Below are positions 1 through 15,997 of a stretch of DNA of 51,599 nt, in pieces. Numbering within the stretch: the first letter of the stretch is position 1; the number at the start of each line of letters is the position of its first letter. The notes under the pieces were generated by a model. The model had not been told where the DNA came from. It ran no database searches and saw only the letters and a list, made by a program, of their open reading frames with translations. The DNA comes from Candidatus Methylomirabilales bacterium (GTDB lineage: Bacteria > Methylomirabilota > Methylomirabilia > Methylomirabilales > CSP1-5): contig JBHIAH010000012.1 of NCBI GenBank assembly GCA_046758505.1, forward strand, positions 1 through 51,599. Reading direction: 5' to 3'. The position numbers and the translations under genes were made by a program.

Positions 1-409
1 TGGCCTTCTCCACGTGGTCGACCCCCGCGAAGACGCCCACCGTGACCCGGAGCTGCGGGTAGGAGCGCTTGATCAGGTCGAGCAGGTAGGGGAGCGAGAC
101 CGTCACGGCATCCACCCCCATCTCTACTAGCCAGTCAAGGAGGGTGCGGATCTGGCGTTGCCCCCTGCGCGTCCACTCCCGATTGTCGAGGCAGGCTGCG
201 TTGAGCAGGTAGTTGAAGCGGATCCCGTGCCGGTGGGCCTCCCGGACATGAGCCGCGAGCCCTCGCTTCGTCAGCGGAGAGAGCATGTACGAGGCTCGGC
301 CTCCTCCCAGGGGATCGACTGGGAGCTTGCCGAACAGCTCGTGCACCGGATAGCCGTTGAGCGCCTCGATCAGCTCGGGCTCGAAGTTCGTGGCGACGCT
401 TAGCCGCAC
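1..409 (-). CDS. Peptidase U32 family protein (5' part; runs off the window edge)
   Basis: Not in the ORF track. Manual translation from GTG at 409 (GGAGG upstream) gives MRLSVATNFEPELIEALNGYPVHELFGKLPVDPLGGGRAS...HGIRFNYLLNAACLDNRE...MGVDAVTVSLPYLLDLIKRSYPQLRVTVGVFAGV, a typical U32 TIM-barrel N-terminus. Confidence 0.8.
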   Translation of the reverse strand, partial: MRLSVATNFEPELIEALNGYPVHELFGKLPVDPLGGGRASYMLSPLTKRGLAAHVREAHRHGIRFNYLLNAACLDNREWTRRGQRQIRTLLDWLVEMGVDAVTVSLPYLLDLIKRSYPQLRVTVGVFAGVDHVEKA

Positions 410-416
410 CTTCCAG

Positions 417-620
417 TCACCTCCGTCCGCTGAGGACCCTCAGCGCCAGCGCTTTTCAGGGTCAGTAGCGGACGGCCGACGTGAGGACCAGAGCGAGGCC
501 GGCTAGCCCGCTCACCCAGCCGGCCCAGCCCGCCAGGCTCACTCCGAGGAGAATCAGGAGGACGCCCCCAATCAGACGGGCCCACCGCTCCACTGCCCCG
601 ATATTCTTCGCCGTTAACAT
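417..620 (-). CDS. DUF2892/YgaP-like two-TM membrane protein with in-frame UGA codons (candidate selenoprotein); conventional stop at 462-464
   Basis: ATG at 620; KNIGAVERWARLIGG followed by two hydrophobic helices. UGA (462-464) falls where the family's Cys of (F/W/Y)CP is expected, and a second UGA is at 456-458. Read-through ends at TGA 417-419, giving 67 aa. Confidence 0.7.
428..445 (-). other. SECIS-like hairpin CGCTGAG-GGTC-CTCAGCG
   Basis: Perfect inverted repeat. The G-starting loop lies 23 nt after the first UGA and 17 nt after the second. There is no U-tract, so it is not a typical intrinsic terminator. Confidence 0.5.
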
Positions 621-795
621 TTCCTGTTCGCTCGCTTCGTCTGCCCTACTGCCGGCTGCTGCACCAGCCCACTGGCCGGGCCCGCGGATCCTGTCGCGGC
701 GAGCAGCCCCCGCCGACCGCGCCACCCGCTGGGCCTCGTCCTGAGACTCGGTGATTTCGGTTCAGGGCCCTTCTGTGGTGACCTCGCCGACTCCA

Positions 796-1182
796 TCACG
801 TGACGCGCCGCCGTGCGAGAACGTCGACGATCTCCGCCATTCGGCTCCCCGGGGTAAAGACCCCGGCCACCCCCATGGCCTCGAGCGCCGGGATCAGGTG
901 CAGGGGAACGATCCCTCCCACGAGGACCTGGATCCCGTCAGCCCCTTGTCTTTCGACTTCCTCCATGAGCCGAGCCACGAGGATGTCGGGAGCGCCATCC
1001 ATGATCCGGTAGCCGATCCACTGCACATCTTCGGCGAGCGCTAGCTGGACGATCTCGCGGGGAAGGAGGCATCCCCCCAAGATCACCTCGATACCCGCGT
1101 CCCGAAGCCCCCTGGCCACAACCGAGTACCCCACGGTGTGGCCCGGGGTGTCCGCAACGAGGAGAAGGCGCACCGGGCCCAT
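796..1182 (-). CDS. Cobalamin-binding subunit of an acyl-CoA mutase (MCM C-terminal-like), with non-canonical motifs
   Basis: PGHTVG..VVARGLRDAGIEVI..LVGGIVP..GVAGVFTPG match the B12-binding domain. Lies directly downstream of the mutase large subunit. Confidence 0.9.
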   Translation of the reverse strand: MGPVRLLLVADTPGHTVGYSVVARGLRDAGIEVILGGCLLPREIVQLALAEDVQWIGYRIMDGAPDILVARLMEEVERQGADGIQVLVGGIVPLHLIPALEAMGVAGVFTPGSRMAEIVDVLARRRVT

Positions 1183-1184
1183 GC

Positions 1185-2846
1185 TCAGCGCCAGAAGTAC
1201 ATGGCCCCCCGGAAGGGCGGCTCGCCCACCGCCGCTTCCCTCACCCTCGCAATCTCGCCGATGCTGAGGCAGGCCCTGACCGCCTCCAGCATGGGGGGGA
1301 TGATGTTGACTTTCTCCCGGTAGGCCTCGCCCAGGCGTTCTTTTGCCCGGTCCGCCGCGACCGGATCCCGCTCAGCCCGGACCTTCCGAAGCCGTGCAAT
1401 CTGCTTGTCCCGCCAGGCCGGGTCGTACTCGAAGAGCGGAAGGGCCGGGACCCCTTCCTCATCATCCGCCTTGAACTGGTTCACGCCCACCACGACCTGC
1501 TGGCCGGCGTCGATGGCACGCTGGCGCCGGGCGGCTTCGGCCTCTGTCTGCTCATCCATCCACGAAAACGCCCGGGCGGGCTCCATGGCCTCGAGCGTCT
1601 CGAGGAGCTTGCCGGCTTCCTCCTCCAGCTCGTCCGTAAGCGCCTCGATGCAGTACGAGCCGCCCAGGGGGTCGATGACCTTCGCCACGCCGCTCTCGTG
1701 GAGGATGATCTCCTGGGTCCTGAGGGAGAGAATGGCCGAGAACTCGGTCGGAATGGCCAGGGCTTCGTCGAAGGAGTCGACCGACAGCGACTGGGCGCCT
1801 CCGAGGGCCGCGGCCAGCGCGTGGAGGGTGGAGCGGATCACGTTGTTGAGCGGTTGCTGGGCCGTGAGTCCCAGGGCCGAGGTCTGGACATGAAAGCGCA
1901 GGACCCAGGACCGCGGGTTTCGCGCGCGGAACCTCTCCCGCATCAGGCGGGCCCACATCCGCCGCATCGCCCGGAACTTGGCCACCTCTTCGAGGAAGTC
2001 GCTCTCGGCGCTCAGGAAGAACGAGATGCGGGGGGCGATGACGTCCACGTCGAGGCCCCTGGCCAGAGCTGACCGGACGGTAAAGGCTCCCTGGTAGAGG
2101 CTGAAGGCGATCTCCTGGGGCGCGGTCGCCCCGGAGTCCCGGAGGTTGCGGACCGAGATGCTGGTGTGGTTCCAGCGCGGCATGTGCTTCGTGCAAAACT
2201 CGATGATGTCGAGGGAGGCGTTTCCCTTGAGCTCCGGTCCCTCCCCGCCCGGCGTCGCCCAGTTCTGGATCGTTCCCCGGAGCCGCTCCCAGGGGATCCC
2301 CCGATTCTGGGCCACTGCCAGGAGCATGGCGAACACGGGAACGGAGGCCCCGATCTGCGTCAGGCTGATCGCCTCCATCTCGATCCCGTCCAAGAGCGTC
2401 TCCATATCCGCTAGGGTGTCGATCCAGACCCCACCCCGGCCCAGGTGGGCCAGGGAGCGCTCGTCGTCGGAGTCGTAGTTCTGGTACCCCATCCCGCAGA
2501 CGCTGAACCCCGTCTGCCCCTCGGCGAAGAGGCGCTTGAGGCGGGTGTTGGTCTCTTCCGCCGTCCCGAGCCCCACCACCTGCCGCCGGGTCCACTCCCG
2601 CGCCCGGTGTCCGGCGGGAAAGACGCCTCGCGTGTAGGGGTAGTCCCCTGGGAACCCGAGATCCCGGAGGTAATCCGCCCCCTGGACGTCCAGGGGGGTG
2701 TAAAGCAGCTTGAGCGGAAGACCCGACTGCGTCCGCGCCTCCGGATCGTCCCCCCCGCAGGCGCCGAGGATTGCTCGAACCCGCTTTTCGTACTCCTGGC
2801 GGGCCATCTTGAGCTGCCTCAGCGCTTCCGCGGCTCCCATCGCCAC
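1185..2846 (-). CDS. Methylmalonyl-CoA mutase-family large (substrate-binding) subunit, divergent
   Basis: PGDYPYTRG, WTRRQ, YDSDD, GTIQN, EEVAKFRAMRRMWA, RFHVQTS, LTAQQPLNN, DEALAIPT and DPLGGSY motifs. Start is GTG 2846 or ATG 2840. Confidence 0.92.
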   Translation of the reverse strand: MAMGAAEALRQLKMARQEYEKRVRAILGACGGDDPEARTQSGLPLKLLYTPLDVQGADYLRDLGFPGDYPYTRGVFPAGHRAREWTRRQVVGLGTAEETNTRLKRLFAEGQTGFSVCGMGYQNYDSDDERSLAHLGRGGVWIDTLADMETLLDGIEMEAISLTQIGASVPVFAMLLAVAQNRGIPWERLRGTIQNWATPGGEGPELKGNASLDIIEFCTKHMPRWNHTSISVRNLRDSGATAPQEIAFSLYQGAFTVRSALARGLDVDVIAPRISFFLSAESDFLEEVAKFRAMRRMWARLMRERFRARNPRSWVLRFHVQTSALGLTAQQPLNNVIRSTLHALAAALGGAQSLSVDSFDEALAIPTEFSAILSLRTQEIILHESGVAKVIDPLGGSYCIEALTDELEEEAGKLLETLEAMEPARAFSWMDEQTEAEAARRQRAIDAGQQVVVGVNQFKADDEEGVPALPLFEYDPAWRDKQIARLRKVRAERDPVAADRAKERLGEAYREKVNIIPPMLEAVRACLSIGEIARVREAAVGEPPFRGAMYFWR

Positions 2847-2990
2847 CTCACCCCGAATCCCGGCTCAAGGCAGACGCCCCGCCTCATACACGGCAAGATC
2901 CACCACTTGGAGCCGCTCGGCCCGGGTGCGAGTCTCGACGCGCCGGGTCACGATCTCGTCTCTCATCTTACGCGGTACTTTGAACTCGCA

Positions 2991-3056
2991 GGGTGTCACA
3001 GCTCCAGGAGCATTTGCCCTAATTTGGTAGGTCGATTGCCTCAGTCCAGCCTCATG
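2991..3056 (-). promoter_or_regulatory. Putative promoter/operator, copy A, upstream of the mutase operon
   Basis: Manual ungapped alignment gives 50/66 nt identity to 20906-20971. Contains the imperfect palindrome ATTTGG-TAGG-TCGATT. Confidence 0.55.
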
Positions 3057-3218
3057 TCAGTCCTGCTTCATGGCCATGACGAGGCGGAGGGGGAGTTCCC
3101 GAGTCATGTCACGCATGAGGCCCGGGGGGACCCGGTTCAGGCCGCGAGACCCTCAGCGGACCCCCGTTCCACTGTCAGATCGAGCGTCGGGTGAAGAAGG
3201 AGGAACGCGATCGCCTGA

Positions 3219-4007
3219 TCATTGCAGAGCGCCCGGAACCCGGGCGGCAACGATCCGGGCCAGACGGGTGAGGGCCTGAGCTGCCGGTGATGTTGAAGCC
3301 CGAAGCACCACTGGCTCGCCTACGTCGCCGCTTTCTCGGACCTCAGGATCGAGCGGGATAGGGCCAAGGAAAGGGATTCCCCAGTAGGCGCCCATATCGC
3401 GCACCTTCTGCCCTTGGCCGAAGATCTCCAACGGTTCACCACAGCGGGGACAGAGCGAGCTGCTCATGTTTTCGACAATCCCCAAGAGGGGCACACCCCG
3501 CTCCCGGAACAGCGCCACACAGCGTACCACCGAGACCACGGCCAGGTTCTGGGGGGTGGTCACGATCACCACGCCCGTTAAGGGTAGCTGTTGCACCAGG
3601 GTGATGACCGCATCACCGGTACCCGGGGGCAGGTCCACGATCAGGTAGTCCAGGGTGCCCCACTCCACATCCTGCAGGAACTCCTGGATCACCTGGTGGA
3701 CCACGGGTCCGCGGAAAGCCAGGGCCTCGCGCTCCTCGACGAGGAAGCCCATAGACATCAGCTTGACGCCGTAGTTGCTCAAAGGTAGCACGCGTTGCCC
3801 ATCGGCGGAGCGGGGATGCTGTCCCGCCAAGCCGGTCATCACCGGCACGCAGGGCCCGTAGATGTCCGCGTCCAGCAAGCCCACCTGCGCGCCAACCCGG
3901 GCCAGCGCCACGGCCAAGTTGACGGCCACAGTGCTCTTGCCCACGCCACCCTTGCCGCTGGCCATAGCGATGGCGCAGCGTACGCCCCTCACGGTCCGCC
4001 TCCGCAT
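3219..4007 (-). CDS. mrp: Mrp/NBP35 (ApbC) Fe-S cluster carrier ATPase
   Basis: SGKGGVGKST, DADIYGP, DLPPGTGD, VTTPQ and ENMS..CPRC motifs. ATG 4007 preferred over 4085, which overlaps the upstream gene. Confidence 0.93.
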   Translation of the reverse strand: MRRRTVRGVRCAIAMASGKGGVGKSTVAVNLAVALARVGAQVGLLDADIYGPCVPVMTGLAGQHPRSADGQRVLPLSNYGVKLMSMGFLVEEREALAFRGPVVHQVIQEFLQDVEWGTLDYLIVDLPPGTGDAVITLVQQLPLTGVVIVTTPQNLAVVSVVRCVALFRERGVPLLGIVENMSSSLCPRCGEPLEIFGQGQKVRDMGAYWGIPFLGPIPLDPEVRESGDVGEPVVLRASTSPAAQALTRLARIVAARVPGALQ

Positions 4008-4029
4008 CCCCGCAGGGCCGCAGCCATTC

Positions 4030-5208
4030 TTACTTCGCCTCCGCCTTGGGCGGGTAGAACGTCTCGTTGTGATCTGTCGGCTCACCTTCGTAAGCGAAGC
4101 TGTTCACGTAGGCCATGACTTTGAAGATTTCTCGAGTGGTGAGCTTCCCTTCCCAGGGCGTCATGGGCGTGTCCGGCACCCCCTTGGCGATGCGCCAGTA
4201 CCAGTAGGTATCAGACCAGCCTTCCACCAAGTCCGGGTCGCGGAAGTCAGCGGCGCCGGTCACGATGGGGACACCATCTCGGCCGTGGCAGGCAGCACAG
4301 ACCACGTCAGAATGGACCTGGCCCTCGTAGATCGCCTTTCCCTCCGCAAGGACCTGGGGGTCGGTCCACCAGCCGGCCGGCATGGTCCGCTGATACTCCA
4401 GAGGGATCTCGTAGAACGGGCCGCGATCCCCTTTGGCCGTGCCCGGGAAGAGAGGCCTGGGAGTTTGAACGGAGGCATCCTGGAGGGTAGCGAGGTAGGC
4501 CACCAGGGCGCTGATCTCCTCCTCGCTCATCCGCTCGCTGTAGTCATCGGGCATGGTCACCTTGTTGTACTCTTCCTCGAAGCCCTCTGCCAGAGACGAG
4601 CGGGGGTTGAGGAGCTCGGCGTGGATGCTATCGGGGGAGAGGAGGTTTCCGACCTGGTCCAGCTCCGGTCCGCGCCGTTTGACGCCACCCTTCCCGCCGA
4701 TCTTGTGGCAATTGTAGCACTCCCAGTCGTCGTAGGCGAGCCGGCCGCGCTCGATGAGCGCCGGGGAAGGGCCAACCGGGGCTCCCTCAGAGGCTGCCGA
4801 GGCCTGGGTTACCTGATCGCGCTTCACCAGGGCCAGCCCGAGCTCCTCCGCTCTCTTGCGCAGGGCTTCAATGCGCTGGGGCTTCTGCCGCTCCAGAAAA
4901 GAGCGCTGGAGGCGGGCGATCTTCTGCTGCTCCACCTCCGGGCTGTACTGGGGCAACAGCCAGCCTGCCAGCACCAGGGCGGCGGAGGCGATCAGGAAGA
5001 CAGCCAGGATGGCCACGCCACCGTGGCGTGGCTGCGCACCAAAGCGCACGTCCAGCAGCACAAAGAAGGGAAGCGCAATGAGCACGTAGCCCACGAAGTA
5101 GAGGCGAAAGACGGTTGGGAAGCCGATAAGACCGCTGGCGAACCAGACAACGATGGCAAGGACTCCGGTGGCCACCACCTTCCAACGGAGATTCCGCCAC
5201 CAACTCAT
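4030..5208 (-). CDS. Membrane-anchored diheme cytochrome c
   Basis: C-terminal part of ORF 4030..6129. ATG 5208 overlaps the upstream TGA (ATGA). Three N-terminal TM segments, then CYNCH..TMP and CAACH..PMTPW. Confidence 0.88.
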   Translation of the reverse strand: MSWWRNLRWKVVATGVLAIVVWFASGLIGFPTVFRLYFVGYVLIALPFFVLLDVRFGAQPRHGGVAILAVFLIASAALVLAGWLLPQYSPEVEQQKIARLQRSFLERQKPQRIEALRKRAEELGLALVKRDQVTQASAASEGAPVGPSPALIERGRLAYDDWECYNCHKIGGKGGVKRRGPELDQVGNLLSPDSIHAELLNPRSSLAEGFEEEYNKVTMPDDYSERMSEEEISALVAYLATLQDASVQTPRPLFPGTAKGDRGPFYEIPLEYQRTMPAGWWTDPQVLAEGKAIYEGQVHSDVVCAACHGRDGVPIVTGAADFRDPDLVEGWSDTYWYWRIAKGVPDTPMTPWEGKLTTREIFKVMAYVNSFAYEGEPTDHNETFYPPKAEAK

Positions 5209-6659
5209 CGACCGACCTCTCCCGGGAGAACCTCCTGCTCTGGTTTTCCCAACTTGTGGCTGAGCCAGATGATGAAGGTGATGAGAAGAAAGAAGATCAG
5301 AGAGATAGCGGTGACCACCAGGGTCGAATAGAACAGGGTGGGCGTGAACGGTTCGGCGGTGAAATCGGGGATGGCGTTGTAGACGTGGAAGCTCTTGCGC
5401 ATGAGAGAGCGCACAGCCCCCATCAGCCCCATGGTCCAGATGGCTGCGAACGCCAGGACGATCAGGGCATACTGGGAAGGCGTCTCGATCCTCCCCCACG
5501 TGATGCGCCCCCGGCGGATGGCGATGCGGTAGAAGACGTAGTTCGCGAGAGTGACCAGCGCGGTCCAGGCGGCCGCGGCATTCTTGGCCGGCATCAGAGC
5601 CAGGAACCCAAGATGGGCCGGGAGCTCCATCTGGGCAATGAGCGCCTCCTCGGTCATGCCAGGGGGCAGCATCCCTGACTCGAGGATCATGGTGGCGAAG
5701 AAATGCCGGGGGGTCGCCCAGATGGCATTGCCCAGGAAGATGAGGGCGAAGCCGATCTTCATGGGCAGGGCGAAGCGGTCCCCGCCCTCGATCCGCCTGA
5801 CGCTCAGCCACATATAGTAGTTGGCCGCCAGGAAGAGCAGTCCCACCAGGATCCCTTGCATCTCGAAGAACATCGAAAGCCGGTCCGACATCAGGTAGAT
5901 CCCCAGGGAGGCATCGTAGGCGTAGATCTCCCGGCCGTAGATGTAGCCTGGAACCATCAGCAGGACAAAGGTAGCGGTGCCGATGAGATTGCCGCTGAAC
6001 CCCATCCAGTCGTAGAAGGCCCGCTCCCCGGGGTCCTTCGAGGTGAGGTACATGTAGGCCGCCACCAAGCCCGTGATGAAGCCTCCGAAGACGACGTTGG
6101 CGATGAAGCGGTGGAGGTTCAGCGGCCACCAGGTGGGGTTGTTCATCAGCTGCCAGAGGGAGGCTGTCTGCCAGGTTTCAGGCGGGGTATTCATGAAGGA
6201 GGCGATCGCGTTCTGGTTGAGCATGGTGAGGGCGCCGATGATGTTCAGGCCCACACCGATGGCGATGTGCAACCCCTTGCGATCCTTCAGGGCATCCCAG
6301 CTGTACCAGTAGGTGTACAGGCTCAGGGTCTCCAGGATGAAGAAGACCGGGTAGAGCAGAACCCAGAGCATGAAGAAGCGAGGGAAGAGGAAGCCGGAGA
6401 ACTCCGGGTAGAGCCCGCTCAGCATCAAGGCGAAGAAGCCTCCCAGCAGGGCGGTGAGGCTGTATGCCACGGCTGTGATCTTCGTCATCTCGCGGGCTAG
6501 CCGCTCGTAGCGGGGGTCGTTCTTGCGCCAGCCCAGGTACTCGCTGATGACGATGAAGATGGGCGCTCCCAGGATGAAGGCGGCGAAGTTGAGGTGCAAC
6601 TGGGCCACGATCCAGATGGCTGTCCGGTTGCCGATGATCGGAAAGGCGAGATCAGGCAC
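5205..6659 (-). CDS. Cytochrome bd oxidase subunit I-like (CydA-like, 'bd-like') membrane protein
   Basis: QLHLNFAAFILG, E..SLYTYWY, ASFMNTP, NPTWWPLNLHRFIAN and MGLMGAVRS..R motifs; multi-TM. GTG 6659 overlaps the chaperone stop. No cydB nearby. Confidence 0.85.
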   Translation of the reverse strand: MPDLAFPIIGNRTAIWIVAQLHLNFAAFILGAPIFIVISEYLGWRKNDPRYERLAREMTKITAVAYSLTALLGGFFALMLSGLYPEFSGFLFPRFFMLWVLLYPVFFILETLSLYTYWYSWDALKDRKGLHIAIGVGLNIIGALTMLNQNAIASFMNTPPETWQTASLWQLMNNPTWWPLNLHRFIANVVFGGFITGLVAAYMYLTSKDPGERAFYDWMGFSGNLIGTATFVLLMVPGYIYGREIYAYDASLGIYLMSDRLSMFFEMQGILVGLLFLAANYYMWLSVRRIEGGDRFALPMKIGFALIFLGNAIWATPRHFFATMILESGMLPPGMTEEALIAQMELPAHLGFLALMPAKNAAAAWTALVTLANYVFYRIAIRRGRITWGRIETPSQYALIVLAFAAIWTMGLMGAVRSLMRKSFHVYNAIPDFTAEPFTPTLFYSTLVVTAISLIFFLLITFIIWLSHKLGKPEQEVLPGEVGR

Positions 6660-7272
6660 GGGGCTCTCCCTGCCGAAGGTCTCCCCGCTCGTAAAGCGCA
6701 AAGGCTACCGTCGCCGAGGCCACGGCGCGGTAAAAAGCGTCTTCTGTGCAGGCGTGTACGTTCTCCTTGAACTCCTCAAGCCATCCGTCGAGATGCGCGG
6801 CGACAAACTGACCCAGGGCGGGATCCTCCGCCTGGCAGAGCAAGCCACCATATTCCAGGAGCAAGGCGAGGTGATCGGGGTAGTCCTTGAAGCCTTTCGG
6901 TGTGAGGACGCCCTGGGCCTGGTACCGCCGGAGCATGTCCACCGCGGGAGGTCCCATGATCATGCCCCGGGCCCCCGCGAGGAGACCGCCCTCCCCACCC
7001 CGATCCTTGAAGACGGACTCCACAGGGAGGACGACGGTGGACGAAATGACAAAGAGGGGATAGTAGGCCGATTGGAGCGTGTTCAGCGTCACATCCGGGG
7101 GGCTCGGGATCCGAAGCGCTTGGAGGTCTTCCCGGATCCCGAGAGCGACAAACCCTTCCGTCACCGTCTCATATAAGATACCCTCCGCGACCTCCCTGGC
7201 GAAGTCCTGAGACGGCTCCTTGTAGCACTCGGAAAGGGCGAAATAGAGCTCAGCCCGCTGGTTCCACCTCAC
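6652..7272 (-). CDS. TorD/DmsD-family molybdoenzyme maturation chaperone
   Basis: LPVESVF and PDHLALLLE motifs, H..W, FYRAVA; located in the Mo-enzyme operon. Confidence 0.88.
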   Translation of the reverse strand: MRWNQRAELYFALSECYKEPSQDFAREVAEGILYETVTEGFVALGIREDLQALRIPSPPDVTLNTLQSAYYPLFVISSTVVLPVESVFKDRGGEGGLLAGARGMIMGPPAVDMLRRYQAQGVLTPKGFKDYPDHLALLLEYGGLLCQAEDPALGQFVAAHLDGWLEEFKENVHACTEDAFYRAVASATVAFALYERGDLRQGEPRA

Positions 7273-7706
7273 CGGTTCTGCTTAAGGACTTGCTCCGGAA
7301 ACACACCGAAGAGGAGTTTGACCTTTTTCTTGTGGGTCTCAATGAAGTCGTAACTCTTTACGGGGACGTGTCGCTTCTCCGGTTGGCTGAGCATGTCCGG
7401 CCACTGGTCCTTGGTGAACTCCTTGAAAGCAGGGCCGTAGAAGATCTGCCCTTCGACGCCAGCGGCGTTCTCATGGCAGCGCATGCAGTCCTTGGGGTTA
7501 AACGCGATGCCGCCCAGGCCGCCGACCAGGTCGGAGGAGGTCGCGCGTCGGCTGAAGAGCAGGTACGCTGTATCCCTGTCCCAGTCCCGGGCCCGCCGGG
7601 CTTTGCCGATCGGCACACGACCGACCTCGGCTGCGGGGATAGGGGCTACCATCACGAGCAGCAGCGCCACCAAGAGAGCCCCTGAAAGCATCCGCGACCG
7701 CCCCAT
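7269..7706 (-). CDS. Exported monoheme cytochrome c
   Basis: Sec-type signal peptide and a single CMRCH; lies between the Fe-S subunit and the chaperone. Confidence 0.75.
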   Translation of the reverse strand: MGRSRMLSGALLVALLLVMVAPIPAAEVGRVPIGKARRARDWDRDTAYLLFSRRATSSDLVGGLGGIAFNPKDCMRCHENAAGVEGQIFYGPAFKEFTKDQWPDMLSQPEKRHVPVKSYDFIETHKKKVKLLFGVFPEQVLKQNR

Positions 7707-7721
7707 GATCCACCCCCCCTT

Positions 7722-8318
7722 TCAGAGTTTCCGGCGGACCGGCACCGGCTTCAGGAAGATGTTGCTCGGCCCCACGCCGAAGAGATCGATGTCCAGAACC
7801 TCCCGCCCCATCTTCTTCACCTTGGCTAGCAGCGCGTCCCGCCCGCCGAACTCGATGGCGTTGGTCGGGCAGACCATTACGCAGGCCGCGCGATTCCCGC
7901 CCGGGGCACTGGCCGGACGCTCTAACTTATGGGCGCAGAAGGTACACTTGTCCGACTGGAAGTACCCAAACCTGCTCTTGACCGGCGTGAGCTTCACCGC
8001 GCCGTAGGGGCAGGCCGTCACGCACATCTGCGCGCCCACACACCTGTCCCGCTTGAAGAGCACGATCCCGTCCTCCCGTTTCTCCAGTGCCTTGCCGTCC
8101 ACCGGGCAAGACGCGACGCACGGGGGGAACTCGCACTGCTGGCAGTTCATGAACACGGCGTAGGCCGCCGGGTTCTTGCGCTGATCGGGCCCGACGAGGA
8201 CAACGTCGTTGCGCTGCCACTGGGAGCCTACGTGGTTCTCGACCTTGCAGGCCACCACACAGGCCCGGCACATCGTGCATTTACCCGGATCCACGAGAAA
8301 GGCATACTTCTGAGCCAT
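7722..8318 (-). CDS. Four-cluster Fe-S subunit (DmsB/PsrB/ArrB-like)
   Basis: CTMCRACVVAC, CQQCEFPPCVASCP, CVGAQMCVTACP and CTFC...ACVMVCP motifs. Confidence 0.93.
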   Translation of the reverse strand: MAQKYAFLVDPGKCTMCRACVVACKVENHVGSQWQRNDVVLVGPDQRKNPAAYAVFMNCQQCEFPPCVASCPVDGKALEKREDGIVLFKRDRCVGAQMCVTACPYGAVKLTPVKSRFGYFQSDKCTFCAHKLERPASAPGGNRAACVMVCPTNAIEFGGRDALLAKVKKMGREVLDIDLFGVGPSNIFLKPVPVRRKL

Positions 8319-8356
8319 TGGCTATCTCCTCTCCCCTTTCCCCCCCCAATGATCCC

Positions 8357-11035
8357 CTACACCTTGCTGATGCGACAGAGCTGGCACTTGTACTCGTTCT
8401 GGCCCGAAAGGGTGTCGTAGTAGTGAGCGGTCAGCTTGTTGACCGTGGGCCAAGCCTTCCGTCCTACATCCCCATGGACTTTCTGCTTATCCCCGAAGGT
8501 ATGGGGGATGAACACCGTGTTCTCCTGGATCCCGTCCCACACCAGAGCCACCGCCTCAATGGCGTCGCGGGGCGTCTCTACCCGGATCGTGTCGCCGGTT
8601 TTGACACCCAACTTTTTGGCCAGCTTGGGATGCATCTGGCAGTAGCGGTCCCCGCTGATCTGCACCAGGCTCCAGGCCCAGTGGGTGATGGTGTGGAAGT
8701 GCGCCACGCTGGGGCGGCCGGTGGTGAGCTGGATGGGGTACTTCTCCCGCAGCCTGCGGTCCGGCTTGACGCCGATCTTCACCTTGTGCACGACGTTGCC
8801 GGCCGGGGAGTTCCACCACCCCCACGCCATGGGTACGAACTTGTCCAGGTACCGGAGCGTCGGGTTGCCGTCCATGTTCTCCGGCGACATGTAGAACTCG
8901 GGGATTGAGCTGTGGCCTAGCTTCCGGAGTTCCTTGTCGTGCTTGGGGTGGTAGATGACGATCTTGTCCAGCCCGAACCGCTTCTTGTTGTCCGGGAAGC
9001 GGGCGCCGCCGAAGAGCCCCTTCCACCAGTCGGCGTCCGCGTACATGACGCTGGTGCCCGGGTGGCCGCCGTCACGGGCGCGCTGACCGGTCCTCAGGGC
9101 CCTGGTCACCGGGTGGTCAGCCGGCGGGCATGGGGCGCGCAGCACCACGGTCTTCCTGGCAAAGGCGCCCGTCCCGCCCGGCTGGTCAATCATGGCCTCC
9201 ATGCGGTCGGCGGTGATGCCACCGGCCCAGGCGCCGGCGTTGGGGGCGGCCACGGTGTTCCACAGCCGGCGTTTGTCGGTCCCCCACCAGGTGGGGAAGT
9301 TCTCCGTCCAGTACTCCTTGGACATCTTGGTGTCGAACTTGGCCATGGTCTGGGCCAGCTCGGCGTAGATGAGCATCTCGTTCTTGGCCTCGCCGATGGG
9401 ATCCACGACCTTGTGGCGGAACATCACCGCCCGATCCATGCGTCGATGGACGTGATCCATCTCGTAGAAGGTCGTTGTGGGCAGGACATAGTCGGCATAG
9501 TGGGCGATCTCCTCGGGGAAGAGGCCCATGTAGACCGTAAAAAGCCTCCTGTACGCCTCCTCGGCCCGGTTGGCGTCGGAGTTCTGGGTGAGGGGGTTGC
9601 CGTGGTAGATCACCGCCTTGATGGGGTAGGGCTTTCCCTCCAGCACAGCGCGGGGCAAGTAGTCGGGCTGAGGCGGGATGCCGGGCTTCTTGAAGGCATT
9701 CTCCTTGAGCCACTTCTTGTCGGCCTCGGTCTTGGCCTCAACGGCGGGCAGCGAGAGCCCCACCCCCGAGTTGTGCTGCGACACGTGGCCCCCGCCGGGG
9801 ATGCCGACGTTTCCGGTGATGGCCACCAGGAAGGAGATGACACGCTCACAGTCCACGGCGTTCACGTGGTGGTTGATGCCGGCGTTGGTGACAACGGAGG
9901 CTGGCTTCGTGGTCGCGTAGGCGCGGGCCACATTCTTGATCGTCTCAGCCGGAATCCCGGTGATGGACGCTGCCCACTCGGGGGAGTAGCCCTTCCCGTT
10001 GACGAACTTCACCAGCTCGTCGAAGCCCGCGACCCACTTGTTGACGAACTCTCTGTCGTGAAGGTTGTTGTTCACGATGTAGTGGATCATGCCGTAGACC
10101 AGGGCCATGTCGGTCCCAGGCTTGACGGGCAACCACAGGTCGGCTTGGAACGCGGTCGACGTGTAGCGCGGGTCCACCACCACCCACGTCGCACCGGTAG
10201 CTTCCTTGCGCCGTCGCATCCAGCCGAACATTACCGGGTGCAGCTCGGCGTCGTTGCTGCCAAAGGTCATCATGAACTTGGTGTCGCCGAGGTCGTAGCT
10301 CCCGGTGAGAGGATCCCACCCCCACCCGTTGGTCTGGCCTCCCCCGCCGCCGAAGACCCAGTTGATCGCCATCCAGCCGGCGTCGTTGCAGATGTACCCC
10401 TCGTGGGTGGGGTTGGAGCTCCCCAGCATGTGCAGGAGGCGGAACATGGGCGGGCCGCCATCCCGGGAGACCCGGTCGGTGGTCTTGGCCGCGATGACGT
10501 GCGGACCCTCGGTGTCCCGCAGCTCCAGGAGCTTCCGGGCGATCTCCTCGTAGGCCTGCGTCCAGGAGATGGGTTGGAAGTCCAGGCTGGGCTTCGGGCC
10601 GACTCGCTTCAAGGGACGGGTGATGCGGTACTTGTTGTAGAGGAGCTGGAGGATCCCCGCGCGTCCCTTGGCGCAGAGGGCGCCGTCTTCTTCGTTCTCC
10701 GTGTCGGCCTGGACCGGGTTCTTCGGCTCGCCGTAGACATTGACCACCTGACCGTTCTTGACGTGGACCAGGTGCCAGCAGGCCACGGGGCAGAAGGAGC
10801 AGCCGTTGCGGACCACCGTGTCCACGGGCCAAGAGTCCCCCGTATCCCCAGGGAGGCGGACATTGGTGAGGGTGAAGGGCGCCCGCTCCCACTCCGCCCG
10901 GCCGGTCCATTTGTTCCAGGGTCGGGTGAACGCGGCCTCGCGACCGAAGGCCTGGCCGACGCCCGCGCCCGCACCGGCGATCGCCGGACCGGCTACCTTC
11001 AAGAAGCTCCTTCGAGTCAGCCTGACGGAACTCAT
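8357..11035 (-). CDS. Tat-exported Mo/W-bisPGD oxidoreductase catalytic subunit (DMSO reductase family)
   Basis: TRRSFLK Tat motif; CSFCPVAC...LCAKG [4Fe-4S]; VVVDPRYT, KPGTD, ADYVLP, LTTGR and MHPKLA..GD motifs. GGAGG lies 5 nt before ATG 11035. Confidence 0.95.
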   Translation of the reverse strand: MSSVRLTRRSFLKVAGPAIAGAGAGVGQAFGREAAFTRPWNKWTGRAEWERAPFTLTNVRLPGDTGDSWPVDTVVRNGCSFCPVACWHLVHVKNGQVVNVYGEPKNPVQADTENEEDGALCAKGRAGILQLLYNKYRITRPLKRVGPKPSLDFQPISWTQAYEEIARKLLELRDTEGPHVIAAKTTDRVSRDGGPPMFRLLHMLGSSNPTHEGYICNDAGWMAINWVFGGGGGQTNGWGWDPLTGSYDLGDTKFMMTFGSNDAELHPVMFGWMRRRKEATGATWVVVDPRYTSTAFQADLWLPVKPGTDMALVYGMIHYIVNNNLHDREFVNKWVAGFDELVKFVNGKGYSPEWAASITGIPAETIKNVARAYATTKPASVVTNAGINHHVNAVDCERVISFLVAITGNVGIPGGGHVSQHNSGVGLSLPAVEAKTEADKKWLKENAFKKPGIPPQPDYLPRAVLEGKPYPIKAVIYHGNPLTQNSDANRAEEAYRRLFTVYMGLFPEEIAHYADYVLPTTTFYEMDHVHRRMDRAVMFRHKVVDPIGEAKNEMLIYAELAQTMAKFDTKMSKEYWTENFPTWWGTDKRRLWNTVAAPNAGAWAGGITADRMEAMIDQPGGTGAFARKTVVLRAPCPPADHPVTRALRTGQRARDGGHPGTSVMYADADWWKGLFGGARFPDNKKRFGLDKIVIYHPKHDKELRKLGHSSIPEFYMSPENMDGNPTLRYLDKFVPMAWGWWNSPAGNVVHKVKIGVKPDRRLREKYPIQLTTGRPSVAHFHTITHWAWSLVQISGDRYCQMHPKLAKKLGVKTGDTIRVETPRDAIEAVALVWDGIQENTVFIPHTFGDKQKVHGDVGRKAWPTVNKLTAHYYDTLSGQNEYKCQLCRISKV

Positions 11036-11265
11036 GCCCACCTCCGCTTAAGCGTGACCGGCTTTCTCACCATTGCCTGTTCGAAGAGCCCGGCAATCCG
11101 CTGCTCATAGCCTGGATCTCCAATGGATGGGTCGCCCATGCGGAACGGCGCGTCAGGGGACGGCTTAGCCGCCATGACCCCTTTCGCCGGCGAGAGCATG
11201 AAAGCCGCGCTCCCCCCGACCGCCCCTATCAGGACGTCCCTTCGCGTCAGCCTGGAATCGCCCAT
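11032..11265 (-). CDS. Small twin-arginine (Tat) signal-bearing protein, first gene of the Mo-enzyme operon
   Basis: RLTRRDVL followed by a hydrophobic segment and VMA. Its stop overlaps the catalytic subunit start (ATGA); GGGGGTGAG RBS-like sequence upstream. Confidence 0.65.
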   Translation of the reverse strand: MGDSRLTRRDVLIGAVGGSAAFMLSPAKGVMAAKPSPDAPFRMGDPSIGDPGYEQRIAGLFEQAMVRKPVTLKRRWA

Positions 11266-11382
11266 GACTCACCCCCTGGCCGATTATTCGTAGAGCTCGC
11301 CCCCGATCCTCTTTCGCTCAGAAAACAGACCGTCCCGGCACAAAGAACCACCTCCGTTCTAAGGCCGGACTAACTTACATAA

Positions 11383-11399
11383 GGCAAACCTGATGCCAG
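11383..11399 (-). promoter_or_regulatory. Sigma-54 (-24/-12) promoter of the Mo-enzyme operon
   Basis: Minus strand CTGGCATCAGGTTTGCC = GG-N10-GC, next to a sigma-54 activator gene. Confidence 0.8.
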
Positions 11400-11517
11400 A
11401 CCTGGTGAGAAGCAACGCGGCCTTCGGGATAACCTCCCAAAGGCCGTTCGCAAAAGGGCAAGATCGAACCGCCCCTCACCTTGTGGGGGCGTGGACGGCG
11501 TGAAGACAGAGCCGGAC

Positions 11518-11569
11518 TGTTACAGCATGCAACGCCCTGCGGGCGCTAGCACCGTTCAAGAGTGAAACG
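11518..11569. promoter_or_regulatory. Tandem palindromic upstream activator sequences for the sigma-54 activator
   Basis: TGTTACA-GCA-TGCAACG (11518-11534) and CGTTCAA-GAG-TGAAACG (11553-11569), 35 bp apart and ~120-170 bp upstream of the -24 element. Confidence 0.55.
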
Positions 11570-12943
11570 TTAAGATGGGGGGGTGATCTGGTACTCCTTG
11601 AGCTTCCGCCACAGGGTCGTCCGGCTGATGCCGAGCTCCTCGGCCGCCTTCGTCTGGTTCCATCCATGGTCGTAGAGGGCCGAAAGGATCCGGCCCTCCT
11701 CCAGCTCGGCAAGGGTCATGCGCCTTCCAGGAGGAGAAGATTTGAGGTCGCCCTGGCCGAGGAGGCTGGGGGGAAGGTCGTCTGGCATGAGGAGTTCCGA
11801 CCGGCCGAGGACCACCGCCCGCTCGATCGCCTTTTCCAGCTCCCGAACGTTCCCAGGCCAGGCGTAGCCGACGAGCCCCTCCATGGCCTCGGAGGAGATC
11901 CCTTTCACCTTCCTCCCCAACCGCTGGCCAAAGAGCTTCAAGAAGTGGGTGGCCAAGGCGATGACGTCTTCCCTGCGCTCTCTCAGAGGGGGGATCGGCA
12001 GGACGATACCGTTGAGGCGATAGTAGACGTCCTCTCGAAAGGTCCCGTTCTCGACAAGGCCCTTCAGATCCTGATTCGTTGCGGCGAGGATCCGGATGTC
12101 GATCCGGACGGGCGTTGTGCTGCCCACCCGCCGGATCACCTGCTCCTGGAGGACCCTCAGGAGCTTTGCCTGGGTGGACGGCGGCATCCCCCCAACCTCG
12201 TCCAGGAAGATGGTCCCGCCATCCCCCTCCTCGAAGAGTCCCTTCTTCGCGCCCAGGGCTCCGGTGAAGGCCCCCTTCACGTGGCCGAAGAGTTCGCTCT
12301 CCAAGAGGCTCTCGGGGAGGGTGGCGCAGTCGATAGCGATGAAGGGGCGCCCGGCCCGGGGGCTCCAGGCATGGATGGCCCGGGCGATGACCTCTTTCCC
12401 CGTCCCACTCTCCCCTTGGATCAGGACGGTCGCGTCGGTCTTGGCCACCTGGGAAGCTGTCTCCAAGACCTTCTGCAACTTCACGCTCTTCGCGACGATG
12501 GTGTCGAAGCTGTACCGCTCCCGGACCTGATCGCGAAGGTATCGCACCTCCTCCAGGAGCCTCCTCCGCTCCAGGGCCTTCTGGATCGTCAGAAGCATTT
12601 CCTCTGGCTCGAAAGGCTTCGCCACGTAGTCGACGGCCCCGAGCTTCATGGCCTCCACTGCCGAGCCTATACTCCCGTAGGCAGTTAAGACGATCACCTC
12701 GGGGCGAGGGCTCACCTTCTTTGCGGCCTTCAAGACCTCGATCCCCCCGTCTCCCGCCATTCTGAGATCGGTGACGACGAGATCGTAGGGCTCATGTTCC
12801 AGCCTCCTGATGGCCTCCCCGGTCTCTGCAGCCTCGTCCACGCGATAGCCTGCCCGTTTCAGGAGGATGGAGAGGGTGAGCCGCGCCGAGGGCTCGTCAT
12901 CGACGATGAGGAGGGAAGGTTCTCTGGCTCCGGCAGGCTTCAT
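11570..12943 (-). CDS. Sigma-54-dependent response regulator (NtrC family; AioR/ArxR-like position)
   Basis: Receiver domain (VDDE, DLRM, K), GESGTGKE, GAFTGA, FLDEV, WPGNVREL and Fis-type HTH. Confidence 0.95.
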   Translation of the reverse strand: MKPAGAREPSLLIVDDEPSARLTLSILLKRAGYRVDEAAETGEAIRRLEHEPYDLVVTDLRMAGDGGIEVLKAAKKVSPRPEVIVLTAYGSIGSAVEAMKLGAVDYVAKPFEPEEMLLTIQKALERRRLLEEVRYLRDQVRERYSFDTIVAKSVKLQKVLETASQVAKTDATVLIQGESGTGKEVIARAIHAWSPRAGRPFIAIDCATLPESLLESELFGHVKGAFTGALGAKKGLFEEGDGGTIFLDEVGGMPPSTQAKLLRVLQEQVIRRVGSTTPVRIDIRILAATNQDLKGLVENGTFREDVYYRLNGIVLPIPPLRERREDVIALATHFLKLFGQRLGRKVKGISSEAMEGLVGYAWPGNVRELEKAIERAVVLGRSELLMPDDLPPSLLGQGDLKSSPPGRRMTLAELEEGRILSALYDHGWNQTKAAEELGISRTTLWRKLKEYQITPPS

Positions 12944-14737
12944 CTACGCCTCTCCTCCATGTACGGGCAGGGCGATGATCACTTTCGTTCCCTTCCCCTC
13001 CTCGCTCTCCGCCGCGATCCGGCCCGCATGGGCTTCGACGACCCGAAGGGCGATGGCCAGTCCCAGGCCGAGGCCGTCCGGCTTCCTGCTGTAAAACGGT
13101 TCGAAGACCTTGCCGAGTTCCTCCCTGGGGATGCCTCGGCCCGTATCCTCGACGGTGATGAGCACCTTCCCGTCGCTCGAGGAAGTGGAGAGGGAAAGCG
13201 TGCCACCGTCGTCCATGGCTTGAAGGGCGTTCAAGGCGATGTTCCAAAGAGCCTGCTTGATCTGGTCGGCGTCCACCAAGAGGGAAGGGACAAGCGGGTT
13301 CAAGGCCCTCCGGATCTCCTTTCCCTTCGCGGCCTCGTCGTACCTCAAGGCTTCCAGGGTCTCCTCAGCCAGAGCGTTGACGTTACAGGACACGAGGTTC
13401 GGCGGGCGCGGCCTGGCGAACCGGAGAAAATCGGTCAAGAGCCTGTTCAGCCTCCTCGCTTCGTGCTTCACGACCCTCAGGAGGGCGAGATGATCGGCGT
13501 TGATCGTGACTCCCTGATCATAGGTAAGAAGGTTAGCGGCGGTGTAAATGGAGCCGAGGGGGTTTCTGATCTCGTGGGCCATCGCCCCCGCCAGCTCCCC
13601 GATGGAGGCCAGCCGTTCGCTCGTGATCAGCCGTTGCTCCAGCTCCTTCCTTTCGGTGATGTCCTTGCCGATCCCGAGCGTGCCGACGACCCGGCCCCCG
13701 TTATCCTTCAATGGGGACGTGCTCATGACGAGAATGGCGCGGCGGCCCCTGGCATCTCGAATCTCGACCTCCGAGGCGTGGTCATCTTCCCCCGAACCCT
13801 TCAGGAGCAGGGCGTCCAGGGGCCGCCCCACCAAGTCGTCCCGGCGGTACCCGAGCTCCTCGAACTTCCGGTTGACGTAGGTGATTCCGCCCTCTCCGTC
13901 GAGGGTGCAGATGAAATCGTTGGCGTTCTCGAGTAGGTCCTCGAGATACTGTTTCGTCTGCTGGATTTCCCCGACTTTCTCTCCGAGGTTCCTGACCATC
14001 TTGTCGAAAGATTCGGCCAGGCGCCCGATCTCATCCTTCTCAACGGTCCTCACGGAGACCTCCCGCTGGAATCCCCCCCGGCTGAGCTCCTCCACGCTGC
14101 GCGTGAGCTCTCGAAGGGGCCGGGCGATTCGTCTGGATATTACGAGGCCCAAAGAGAATCCTGACAGGGCCAGGAGCCCGGCGATGAGGAGCAGCTCCCT
14201 TTTGGCCCTCTGCAGGACCCTCTCCAGGGATTCCTTGCTGATCCCCGCGCGGACGACGCCGATCTTCTTCCCGCCCAGGACCACAGGGGCCACCACCTCG
14301 TATCCCATCCCCCCCGCAGGAAGGGGGAAGATCGAGGTCCGATCGGCCCTGAGGGTGTCATCGAGCAGAGGGTCCCGGGGGTTCCGGGCCGCGATGGAGT
14401 AGCCGTCGGGATGAGAGTGCGCCAGGAGCTCGCCTTTCATGTTCAAGACCATGGCGTAGAGCATGGGAGGACCCCCTCGGCCGATGTCCCGGGAGAGCTT
14501 GTACAGCTCCCAGATGTCTTCCCGCAAGAGCGGATCGAGGCTCACCCGGGCGAGATGCTCGGCGGTGATCCTCCCCTGGCGGAGCAGCTGCTCCTCCATC
14601 ACCGCCTCCTGTTTCCTGATGGCGTACCAGCCAATGGCCAGGGTGACGCCGTAGACGACGACGAAGAGCGTGAGAGAGAGCTTCGTGCCTATCGTCCAGG
14701 TCAACGGTAGCCGGAAAAGACGGGAGAACTTCCTCAC
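12944..14737 (-). CDS. Sensor histidine kinase (periplasmic Cache-like, HAMP, PAS, HisKA, HATPase; AioS/ArxS-like position)
   Basis: Two TMs, DEIGRLA HAMP, PAS, AHEIRNPL, NALQAM, DTGRGI and GLGLGL. Confidence 0.93.
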   Translation of the reverse strand: MRKFSRLFRLPLTWTIGTKLSLTLFVVVYGVTLAIGWYAIRKQEAVMEEQLLRQGRITAEHLARVSLDPLLREDIWELYKLSRDIGRGGPPMLYAMVLNMKGELLAHSHPDGYSIAARNPRDPLLDDTLRADRTSIFPLPAGGMGYEVVAPVVLGGKKIGVVRAGISKESLERVLQRAKRELLLIAGLLALSGFSLGLVISRRIARPLRELTRSVEELSRGGFQREVSVRTVEKDEIGRLAESFDKMVRNLGEKVGEIQQTKQYLEDLLENANDFICTLDGEGGITYVNRKFEELGYRRDDLVGRPLDALLLKGSGEDDHASEVEIRDARGRRAILVMSTSPLKDNGGRVVGTLGIGKDITERKELEQRLITSERLASIGELAGAMAHEIRNPLGSIYTAANLLTYDQGVTINADHLALLRVVKHEARRLNRLLTDFLRFARPRPPNLVSCNVNALAEETLEALRYDEAAKGKEIRRALNPLVPSLLVDADQIKQALWNIALNALQAMDDGGTLSLSTSSSDGKVLITVEDTGRGIPREELGKVFEPFYSRKPDGLGLGLAIALRVVEAHAGRIAAESEEGKGTKVIIALPVHGGEA

Positions 14738-15636
14738 GGCTTCCTCGGCCTCTGCGCGACGGGGCTTGTCCGCTTCTTTTTCGCGTTAAAAGCCTCAACG
14801 AATCTCCGCATCCGCCGAATGCTATCGTAGTGGCTATCAGGGACCTCTTCGAATCGGTCGATCATGAGCTTCTTGAGGATCTCGCCCCCCTCGCGATCCT
14901 GGTGCATATTCAGAAAAGCTTGGCGGAGCTTCCGCTTCTGGGCGGGATCGAGATCCGGCCGCACAACGACCGGCGTCATTCCGTAATACGGGGACCTGGC
15001 CACCACCCGGGTCTGAGCCGTCAGAGCGGGACGCACAACGTTGAGGTACTCCCAGATGTAGCTATCGACGCTGGCCCCATCCACCAGCTTCACCGCCACC
15101 GCCTCGACGTTCGCGCTGTGGCTATACGTGAAGATATACCTGCGAAAGTAGGTCTCAGGGGTTTCCCCCATGGTGGCCAGCCGGTAGGTGGGGGCCAGCT
15201 TCCCGGAGTTCGAGAGCGGGTCGGAGAACGCATAGAGCTTGCCGCGGAGATCCTCCAGGGATCGAGCGGGGCTGTCCTTCGGGACGATGACGTAGGACTG
15301 GTAGAGCGGTTTGCCGTTGAAAATGGGCGCAACGAGGAGTTCCTCGCCGAACTTCTCCCTGTCGATGACGTACGGCAGGCCGCAGACAAAGGCAGCATCC
15401 ACCAGCCCTCGCTCCAGCAGGTCGCTCATCTCCTGATAGCTCTTCCGATGGACGATCACGGTTGTCCTCCCCAGCTTCCGCCCGATGTAGATCATCATCT
15501 CCTCGTTGAGGCTCCGGTTGTGCTCCACCAGGACCCCCGTGATCCCGATCCGTAAGGGTTCGTCGGCGGTGGAGCTGTCCGTGGCAAGGAAGGTGACGAA
15601 GAGGAGGAACGATAGGAGGCTCAAGTTTTTCTTCAC
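14734..15636 (-). CDS. PhnD-type periplasmic oxyanion-binding protein (AioX/ArxX/ArrX-like)
   Basis: Signal peptide; AFVCGLPY, YQSYVIV, FSDPLSNSG, YSHSANVEAV and DGASVDSYIWE motifs. Translationally coupled to the kinase rather than to a transporter. Confidence 0.85.
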   Translation of the reverse strand: MKKNLSLLSFLLFVTFLATDSSTADEPLRIGITGVLVEHNRSLNEEMMIYIGRKLGRTTVIVHRKSYQEMSDLLERGLVDAAFVCGLPYVIDREKFGEELLVAPIFNGKPLYQSYVIVPKDSPARSLEDLRGKLYAFSDPLSNSGKLAPTYRLATMGETPETYFRRYIFTYSHSANVEAVAVKLVDGASVDSYIWEYLNVVRPALTAQTRVVARSPYYGMTPVVVRPDLDPAQKRKLRQAFLNMHQDREGGEILKKLMIDRFEEVPDSHYDSIRRMRRFVEAFNAKKKRTSPVAQRPRKP

Positions 15637-15640
15637 GGGG

Positions 15641-15997
15641 CTATCTCCCCTGTGTCAGGACTGCGTGTTTGAGACGCCCGTATTCCGGCATCACTGAAGC
15701 GCGCCACGTTCTTGAAGTCGCCGAGGGCCACTCCTGCGCCCGGTGGCCGGCGGGGAAGACGCCTCGCGTGTAGGGGTAGTCCCCGGGGAACCCGAGATCC
15801 CGGAGGTAATCCCTCCCCTGGACGTCCAGGGGAGTGTAGAGCAGTTTCAGCGGAAGACCCGACTGCGTCCGGGCCTCCCGATCGTCCTGCGCACAGGCGC
15901 CGAGGATCGCCCGCACCCGCTTCTCGTACGCCTGACGGGCCCTCTTGAACTGTCTCAGCGCTTCCGCGGGCCCCATCGCCTCGCCCTGAATCCCCAT
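15641..15997 (-). pseudogene. 5'-only remnant of the mutase large subunit
   Basis: ATG 15997: MGIQGEAMGPAEALRQFKRARQAYEKRVRAILGAC...PGDYPYTRGVFPAGHRAQEW is nearly identical to the N-terminus of 1185..2846. Homology stops at ~15728 and the frame ends at 15641. Confidence 0.88.

Follow-up and report, generated by a model that had tools for sequence, protein, structure and literature searches.

A close described counterpart of the protein reported here is the sulfurtransferase YgaP of E. coli, for which the available text of PMC4730233 places Cys159 at the end of the second transmembrane helix, near a thiocyanate site, and this helix at the dimer interface. Both proteins belong to the same transmembrane family, but E. 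coli YgaP carries an N-terminal rhodanese domain and one Cys at this place, whereas our protein is the membrane part alone (PMC4730233). Cys-type members of the family (YgaP-like_TM/DUF2892, PF11127) have two helices followed by an aromatic-Cys-Pro motif. The gene described here lies in a 51,599-nucleotide stretch of DNA (called the window throughout) filed as contig JBHIAH010000012.1 of a Candidatus Methylomirabilales bacterium, assembly GCA_046758505.1. It shares the two helices with the Cys-type genes, but a UGA stands on that Cys and another one comes two codons later; a tail of its own (K-x-x-L-x-[KR]-V), a SECIS-like hairpin and a separate clade (support 97/90 in a short, weakly resolved tree of 65 columns) set it further apart. 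Judging from comparative sequence analysis, it is highly likely that the gene encodes a 67-residue two-helix inner-membrane protein with two selenocysteine (Sec, U) residues in a U-P-U arrangement.

For UxU itself there is an earlier bacterial example from a different family: according to the available text of PMC1976440, a rhodanese-related sulfurtransferase of Olavius algarvensis symbionts is a predicted selenoprotein with a second Sec. That protein belongs to a different, soluble family in which UxU is one new form, whereas here UxU defines a whole clade. Bacterial families with two Sec residues in UxxU or UxxxxU motifs (Prx-like, NF041115, FmdB-type and TsoB) appear in Table 1 of PMC13188914. 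They share with our family the close Sec pair but have wider spacing and are unrelated. The table of 119 families in the available text of that paper, which covers the families of Haft and Tolstoy 2025 as tabulated there, has no PF11127 entry and no UxU motif, and YgaP and DUF2892 are absent from the main texts of PMC13188914, PMC13326102, PMC12013277, PMC13745706 and bioRxiv 2022.07.06.499078. In the literature searched, nothing linked selenoprotein with DUF2892, and nothing of evident relevance linked selenocysteine with YgaP. NCBIfam 20.0 holds no model for this family: the 67-residue protein had 0 matches, and 38 aligned members gave scattered weak matches only, with at most two members per family. 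The decoding machinery and the domain are known ones; the family is absent from the catalogues covered here, and its two Sec codons are the closest pair that a single hairpin appears to serve.

By the consensus given in the available part of PMC13188914, bacterial SECIS (bSECIS) elements have a loop of 3–9 nt, a stem of 4–16 bp, a G in loop positions 1–2, a distance of 16–37 nt from the UGA and a minimum free energy of at most –7.5 kcal/mol. The hairpin of this locus shares the short stem, the small G-led loop and the 16–37 nt distance with that consensus (PMC13188914). It differs both from the consensus and from the E. coli fdhF SECIS in that one hairpin stands behind two UGAs and the upper stem has no bulged U.

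The locus and its relatives

The UGA-Pro-UGA motif named in the original prediction, which was made from the letters of the window, is present on the minus strand at codons 53–55, with CCC as the Pro codon. The proposed read-through product of 67 residues, ending at the ribosome-binding site (RBS) of the next gene, agrees with the open reading frame and the GGAGG found there (Table 1). The terminal stop of close relatives is TGA, TAA or TAG at the same place, and the frame is open for at most 35 extra codons 5′ of the ATG. PF11127, the only Pfam match of the 67-residue protein, gives 36.6 bits for the part ahead of the first UGA and 48.2 bits with read-through (gathering cut-off 25.3); the rhodanese N-terminal domain of E. 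coli-type YgaP is absent. The start of the U32-family gene stands next to the YgaP-like gene in five of seven aligned close loci, and this linkage is limited to close relatives.

Table 1. Features of the YgaP-like locus, in positions of the window
Feature	Position	Strand	Basis
Coding sequence, 67 aa, YgaP-like/DUF2892 membrane protein with inferred U53-P54-U55	417..620	-	Translation; PF11127; starts and tails align in relatives
Start codon ATG	620-618	-	Sequence
Predicted transmembrane helix 1, residues 9-28	537..596	-	AlphaFold2; hydropathy
Predicted transmembrane helix 2, residues 32-49, ending just ahead of UPU	474..527	-	AlphaFold2
UGA no. 1, codon 53, inferred Sec, on the conserved Cys of the family	462..464	-	Aligns with Cys of Cys-type YgaP proteins
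UGA no. 2, codon 55, inferred Sec	456..458	-	In 54/54 counted loci; Cys in P0055, P0173 and L228; frame kept downstream
Predicted basic C-terminal helix, residues 54-63, largely encoded by the hairpin	432..461	-	AlphaFold2, pLDDT ~60, low confidence
SECIS-like hairpin, perfect 7-bp stem, GGUC loop at 438-435	428..445	-	Folding; pairing conserved; very little change at third codon positions
Terminal UGA (419-417) directly behind GGAGG (424-420), RBS of the next gene	417..424	-	Sequence
Downstream U32-family gene, GTG at 409, cut by the contig end, neighbour only	2..409	-	PF01136 E 2e-4, below cut-off on the fragment

Contigs from two public sequencing runs, which may be the source of this DNA, cover positions 300–800 with no base difference. 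Positions 508–15681 match, at 99.97% identity over 15,174 bases, a contig filed in the genome of another order (L246, G214:C64), which reflects either shared binning or a very recent transfer. The assignment of the left 15 kb of our contig to this genome is therefore uncertain; the genome of the other order also has selA. Upstream of the gene, a short stretch at 676–722 recurs on several unrelated contigs of the sequencing runs and is possibly a small repeat. A run of minus-strand genes at 796–8318 comprises a B12-binding domain gene, a methylmalonyl-CoA-mutase-like gene and an Mrp/ApbC ATPase, and continues with a cytochrome c, a cytochrome bd subunit I-like gene, a nitrate reductase delta-family chaperone and a 4Fe-4S protein.

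The first UGA aligns with the Cys of Cys-type YgaP proteins, as expected from the earlier claim that DUF2892/YgaP proteins carry a conserved aromatic-Cys-Pro at this point. Replacement of that Cys by Sec, the central proposal, is supported by this alignment together with the hairpin, the Sec genes and the recurrence across loci. In 251 genomes of the phylum, 20 PF11127 matches were interrupted by a stop, which was TGA every time, and several types of single-UGA genes have Cys sisters with the same flanks. Of 15 database relatives, 14 (the window's own among them) stop at the Tyr that precedes the UGA, and the remaining one is a fragment of 43 residues. PF11127 matches were found in 0 of 13 genomes of the same genus, so that the gene is patchy.

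At least three further single-UGA YgaP-like lineages (L007, L027-L033, L034-L041, L207-L209) were observed. Each has its own hairpin, and the Cys-to-Sec change therefore seems to have occurred more than once. The first UGA of L020 was considered as a second Sec and rejected: it aligns with Trp in sister genes and is taken as a nonsense change or an error (the L020 row was wrongly cut in the tree).

A search for relatives, suggested with the original prediction, showed that TGA recurs at both columns and that coding conservation continues downstream. We counted 54 distinct loci above 40 bits (51 UPU and 3 ULU) in Methylomirabilota, Desulfobacterota and Nitrospinota; these loci, like the 41-locus set used below, are kin, and their counts are not independent events. 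A CPC copy (L228) and a UAU copy (L206) fell below the 40-bit threshold and were left out of the 54. Within the phylum, UPU was seen in four genomes, which belong to three families. With one genome taken per species, a pattern scan that accepted TGA, TGC or TGT at both sites gave at least 80 loci. Among the matches listed, 35 were YgaP-like (53.7–76.4 bits) and the other 45 scored at most 1.4 bits; TGA stood at both sites in all 35 of the YgaP-like matches listed. Desulfobacterota supplied most of these, and Nitrospinota and Methylomirabilota a single record each. When 401 genomes were searched with a profile instead of the pattern, all 15 best matches had two TGA codons; profile searching also added the ULU and UAU forms. 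Ten loci from a metagenome scan included four true relatives, all UPU, and six short or spurious ones, and a viral scan gave only two matches, both by chance. Two or three UxU paralogues per genome were seen in G255, G597 and G684, the last of which also holds the frameshifted CPC copy.

Probable selenocysteine decoding and the hairpin

The Sec machinery that the original prediction proposed to look for was found in full: selA, selB, selD and tRNA-Sec (selC) are present on other contigs of the assembly, which is 96.8% complete and 1.55% contaminated, and selD itself carries one in-frame TGA. We ranked 220 UGA-plus-hairpin candidates of the genome and picked 13 by recognisable motifs. Twelve of these matched Pfam families (GrdB-like, AhpC/TSA, deiodinase, glutaredoxin, DUF3179, CMD and OsmC among them), and the host is therefore a selenoprotein-rich bacterium. 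In further carrier genomes selA was found in 29 of 34 (27 above the cut-off), and tRNA-Sec in four of five carriers without a selA match. Neither selA nor tRNA-Sec was matched in G266, and G676, searched for selA only, gave no selA match. In other carriers, selB was found in five of five and, in a separate check, selA in four of five.

Two more UGA genes were noticed on the way. L243 (G000:C41:14003-14263, minus strand) is a small gene with a Cys-x-x-UGA motif and a hairpin, weakly similar to LysW/ArgW carrier proteins (NF041070, 31.7 bits, below cut-off); a glutaredoxin gene of the UxxC type precedes it by about 300 bases, and it is absent from the family table in the available text of PMC13188914. 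L242 (G000:C24:28341-29000) encodes a VKOR-family membrane protein followed by an in-frame thioredoxin-like stretch, whose UxxC motif holds the UGA and which has a strong hairpin.

Folding reproduces the perfect hairpin noted at the outset, with its G-led loop 23 nt after the first and 17 nt after the second UGA (loop G at +24 and +18). The GGUC loop is the same as the apical loop of the E. coli fdhF SECIS. Compared by hand with the bSECIS consensus, the 4-nt loop, the 7 bp, both distances and the energies of the downstream stretch (–14.7 and –12.6 kcal/mol) all lie within its limits. Such an arrangement is rare in the genome: of 1660 TGA-NNN-TGA sites, the present locus alone combines a 6-bp stem and a G[G/U]-led tetraloop at the given offset. 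When the tail was recoded synonymously, the hairpin was kept in 32 of 5000 recodings, and an equally stable fold arose in 169 of 5000.

Across relatives, a 6-bp stem with a GGU-led loop stands at the same offset in 53 of the 54 UxU loci. In 36 distinct rows, pairing at the six core positions is complete (100%), and the one compensatory A-U/G-C exchange is probably a single event. Variation at third codon positions amounts to 0–0.17 bits inside the hairpin, against 1.71 upstream and 0.9–1.65 in the spacer. The scan pattern itself prescribed Lys plus two further bases just past the second UGA, and synonymous counts at that place are biased by it. The 61-nt region 410–470 folded as a whole is of ordinary stability (z = –0.44), and its lowest-energy fold pairs the region of the first UGA with the loop instead of forming the hairpin, which is the best fold only for the stretch downstream of the UGA. 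A ribosome standing on the UGA would be expected to melt this alternative fold. Rfam gave, over positions 300–900, one match only, far below its cut-off.

The position of the loop points to a double role. Of 17 single-UGA relatives, 15 have the loop G at +20/+21 and two differ in their fold; in the double-UGA genes it lies at +24/+18, and therefore one hairpin probably serves both UGAs. In 14 other UGA genes of this genome the loop G lies between +17 and +27, with five genes at +18 and two at +24, so that both offsets are in use by the organism. In the mechanism that we propose, SelB with Sec-tRNA would bind the single GGUC-loop hairpin and serve the first UGA at +24; after incorporation of Pro, the same hairpin would serve the second UGA at +18. 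Compared with the single-UGA genes, the additional codon would set the two UGAs 3 nt either side of the usual +21.

Probable translation of the tail and competing readings

That the second UGA might be decoded as well had been put forward as a possibility, and it gains support from the reading frame of the tail and from Cys-Pro-Cys relatives with the same tail. The first stop within nine codons past the hairpin is in frame in 38 of 41 loci, compared with 2 and 15 of 41 in the other two frames. The 38 in-frame stops comprise 16 TAG, 12 TGA and 10 TAA, and the residues ahead of them are mostly Lys, Arg, Glu and Gly. One cluster at 90% identity contains six proteins, of which three end at Tyr, one ends at Cys-Pro and two are full-length Cys-Pro-Cys proteins with the same tail. 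The nearest genome matches of the CPC protein are UPU genes (88% and 87% identical). Tyr and Cys-Pro endings are also mixed in a second cluster. This natural series of Tyr, Cys-Pro and Cys-Pro-Cys endings is the strongest evidence, as far as sequences can tell, that the tail is likely to be translated.

The sole CPC copy seen as DNA, L228, reads TGC-CCG-TGT, keeps the tail and is frameshifted near its start; its hairpin, worn down for the most part by synonymous substitutions, has only –3.6 kcal/mol left, where UPU sisters have –9.3 to –10.8 kcal/mol. A sister group has RPW, LPR, RPR, RPL or LPL at the motif, and these forms, known (like P0055, P0173 and P0174) from protein sequence only, retain an intact tail, which confirms the reading frame; their existence also means that some descendants do without Se or S. 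Arg, Leu or Trp at both sites was seen in P0056, P0058, P0061, P0077, P0104, P0110 and P0180, and codons for these residues in the sister group can lie one base from TGA. The CPC, RPW and LPR forms are nested inside the UxU clade, suggesting Sec loss from a UPU ancestor. We conclude that, very probably, the second UGA is decoded as well.

The original prediction had also allowed that the second UGA is the real stop. Only the first UGA would then be Sec, the product would be a 54-residue protein ending Tyr-Sec-Pro, and conservation downstream would come from the hairpin alone. This reading is improbable. It is true that the hairpin alone accounts for the frozen bases of codons 6–11 and that database proteins ending Cys-Pro exist (P0036, P0050, P0174), but it leaves unexplained why the in-frame stops cluster past the hairpin and why no stop occurs within nine codons after the second UGA in any of the 54 loci. 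Proteins with Cys, Trp, Arg or Leu in place of the second UGA retain the tail, the tail residues of L228 persist despite decay of its hairpin, and neither TAA nor TAG was seen at the second site among loci found by profile. Sec recoding in E. coli has an efficiency of only 30–40% per UGA, as the available text of PMC4513850 gives it, and a 54-residue product is therefore expected as a by-product of the two-Sec reading. The other origin once suggested for the second UGA, a homopolymer miscall of CCC CTG AAA (PLK), was rejected: UGA-CCN-UGA stands in 51 distinct loci with synonymous Pro codons.

Yet more doubtful is the idea that a non-canonical tRNA or a different genetic code makes both UGAs stand for Cys or Trp instead of Sec. 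Special tRNAs that recode UGA to Cys occur in some deltaproteobacteria, and two database proteins have Trp-Pro-Trp (P0038, P0054), entries that are most simply gene calls made with TGA as Trp. Such decoding is opposed by the canonical tRNA-Sec and tRNA-Trp(CCA) of this genome, by TGA being the normal stop of this same gene and by the fit of the hairpin to the SelB-type consensus. A sequencing error or a pseudogene, to which the absence of PF11127 from the 13 same-genus genomes and the position near a contig end might point, is scarcely credible against a motif common to 54 distinct loci, TGA as the internal stop in all 20 matches from 251 genomes and base-for-base agreement of the sequencing-run contigs.

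Possible function and significance

Under the two-Sec reading, the two Sec residues would lie just past predicted helix 2. In an AlphaFold2 model where Cys stands in for Sec (mean pLDDT 71.3), helices 9–28 and 32–49, joined by a short loop, have pLDDT of about 76–83, in agreement with the two transmembrane helices of PF11127. Residues 50–67 include five Lys/Arg. Basic residues are found at both ends and none in the loop, which suggests that both termini and the UPU motif face the cytoplasm. A fold search with the model against the PDB gave no match at E up to 0.001, and the family profile had 0 matches to PDB sequences at E up to 1.

We lean, if only slightly, towards the two selenols at the end of helix 2, on the cytoplasmic face, forming a redox or sulfur/selenium-handling pair, and favour this over soft-metal binding. 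The pair might exist as diselenol, diselenide or selenosulfide, and UPU would be a more reactive form of the single Cys of E. coli YgaP near the thiocyanate site. A soft-metal or metalloid site in the membrane (Hg, Cu, Ag, Cd, As) is a possible but less likely use of the motif. The membrane CPC motif of P1B-type ATPases binds soft metals of the Hg/Cu/Ag/Cd/As type. A review, in its available text, describes Cd binding by SELENOP through CXU, UXC or UXU motifs (PMC11818150). Gene neighbourhoods speak against a metal site: a scan of 66 nearby genes, to which other UxU loci contributed 61, showed no recurring metal-resistance gene, nor any recurring neighbour gene or conserved operon. Some single-Sec relatives, for which 28 of 71 listed neighbours were scanned, adjoin a sulfide-dehydrogenase-like flavoprotein (L034, L041), an OsmC and a thioredoxin-like gene (L007) or an ArsR regulator (L020). 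Single-UGA genes of the NF-UGA-P type (L034, L035, L037, L041) stand behind a conserved cluster with a LolA-like/DUF1329 gene, and two of these loci stand before a sulfide-dehydrogenase-like flavoprotein.

A bolder idea, which we hold to be rather unlikely, is that the hairpin is purposely placed midway, with SelB reloading within two elongation steps, and that the membrane-anchored Sec-Pro-Sec acts as a diselenide switch with a Cys-Pro-Cys counterpart, selenium-dependent products and coupling to the U32 gene. A redox-active Cys-Pro-Cys motif is known from Mia40. If this were true, products of 52, 54 and 67 residues would be made, since each UGA can also terminate, and their ratio would depend steeply on selenium. 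In the Methylomirabilota loci the last stop abuts the RBS of the next gene, so that translation of the U32-family protein would, on the same condition, follow selenium supply and be tied to it.

The two-Sec reading adds an uncatalogued, widespread, integral membrane selenoprotein family, which gene callers shorten and of which databases hold only stubs of 51–55 residues. It also suggests which residue does the work in this domain, whose function is unknown. The family offers a natural test of the reach of one bacterial SECIS, and of whether it can serve two UGAs two codons apart, with controls built in: the loop stands at +21 in single-UGA genes and at +24/+18 in double-UGA genes, and Cys-Pro-Cys revertants lose the hairpin. 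Finally, a compact two-Sec cassette of this kind could, in laboratory strains, help to make multi-Sec proteins.
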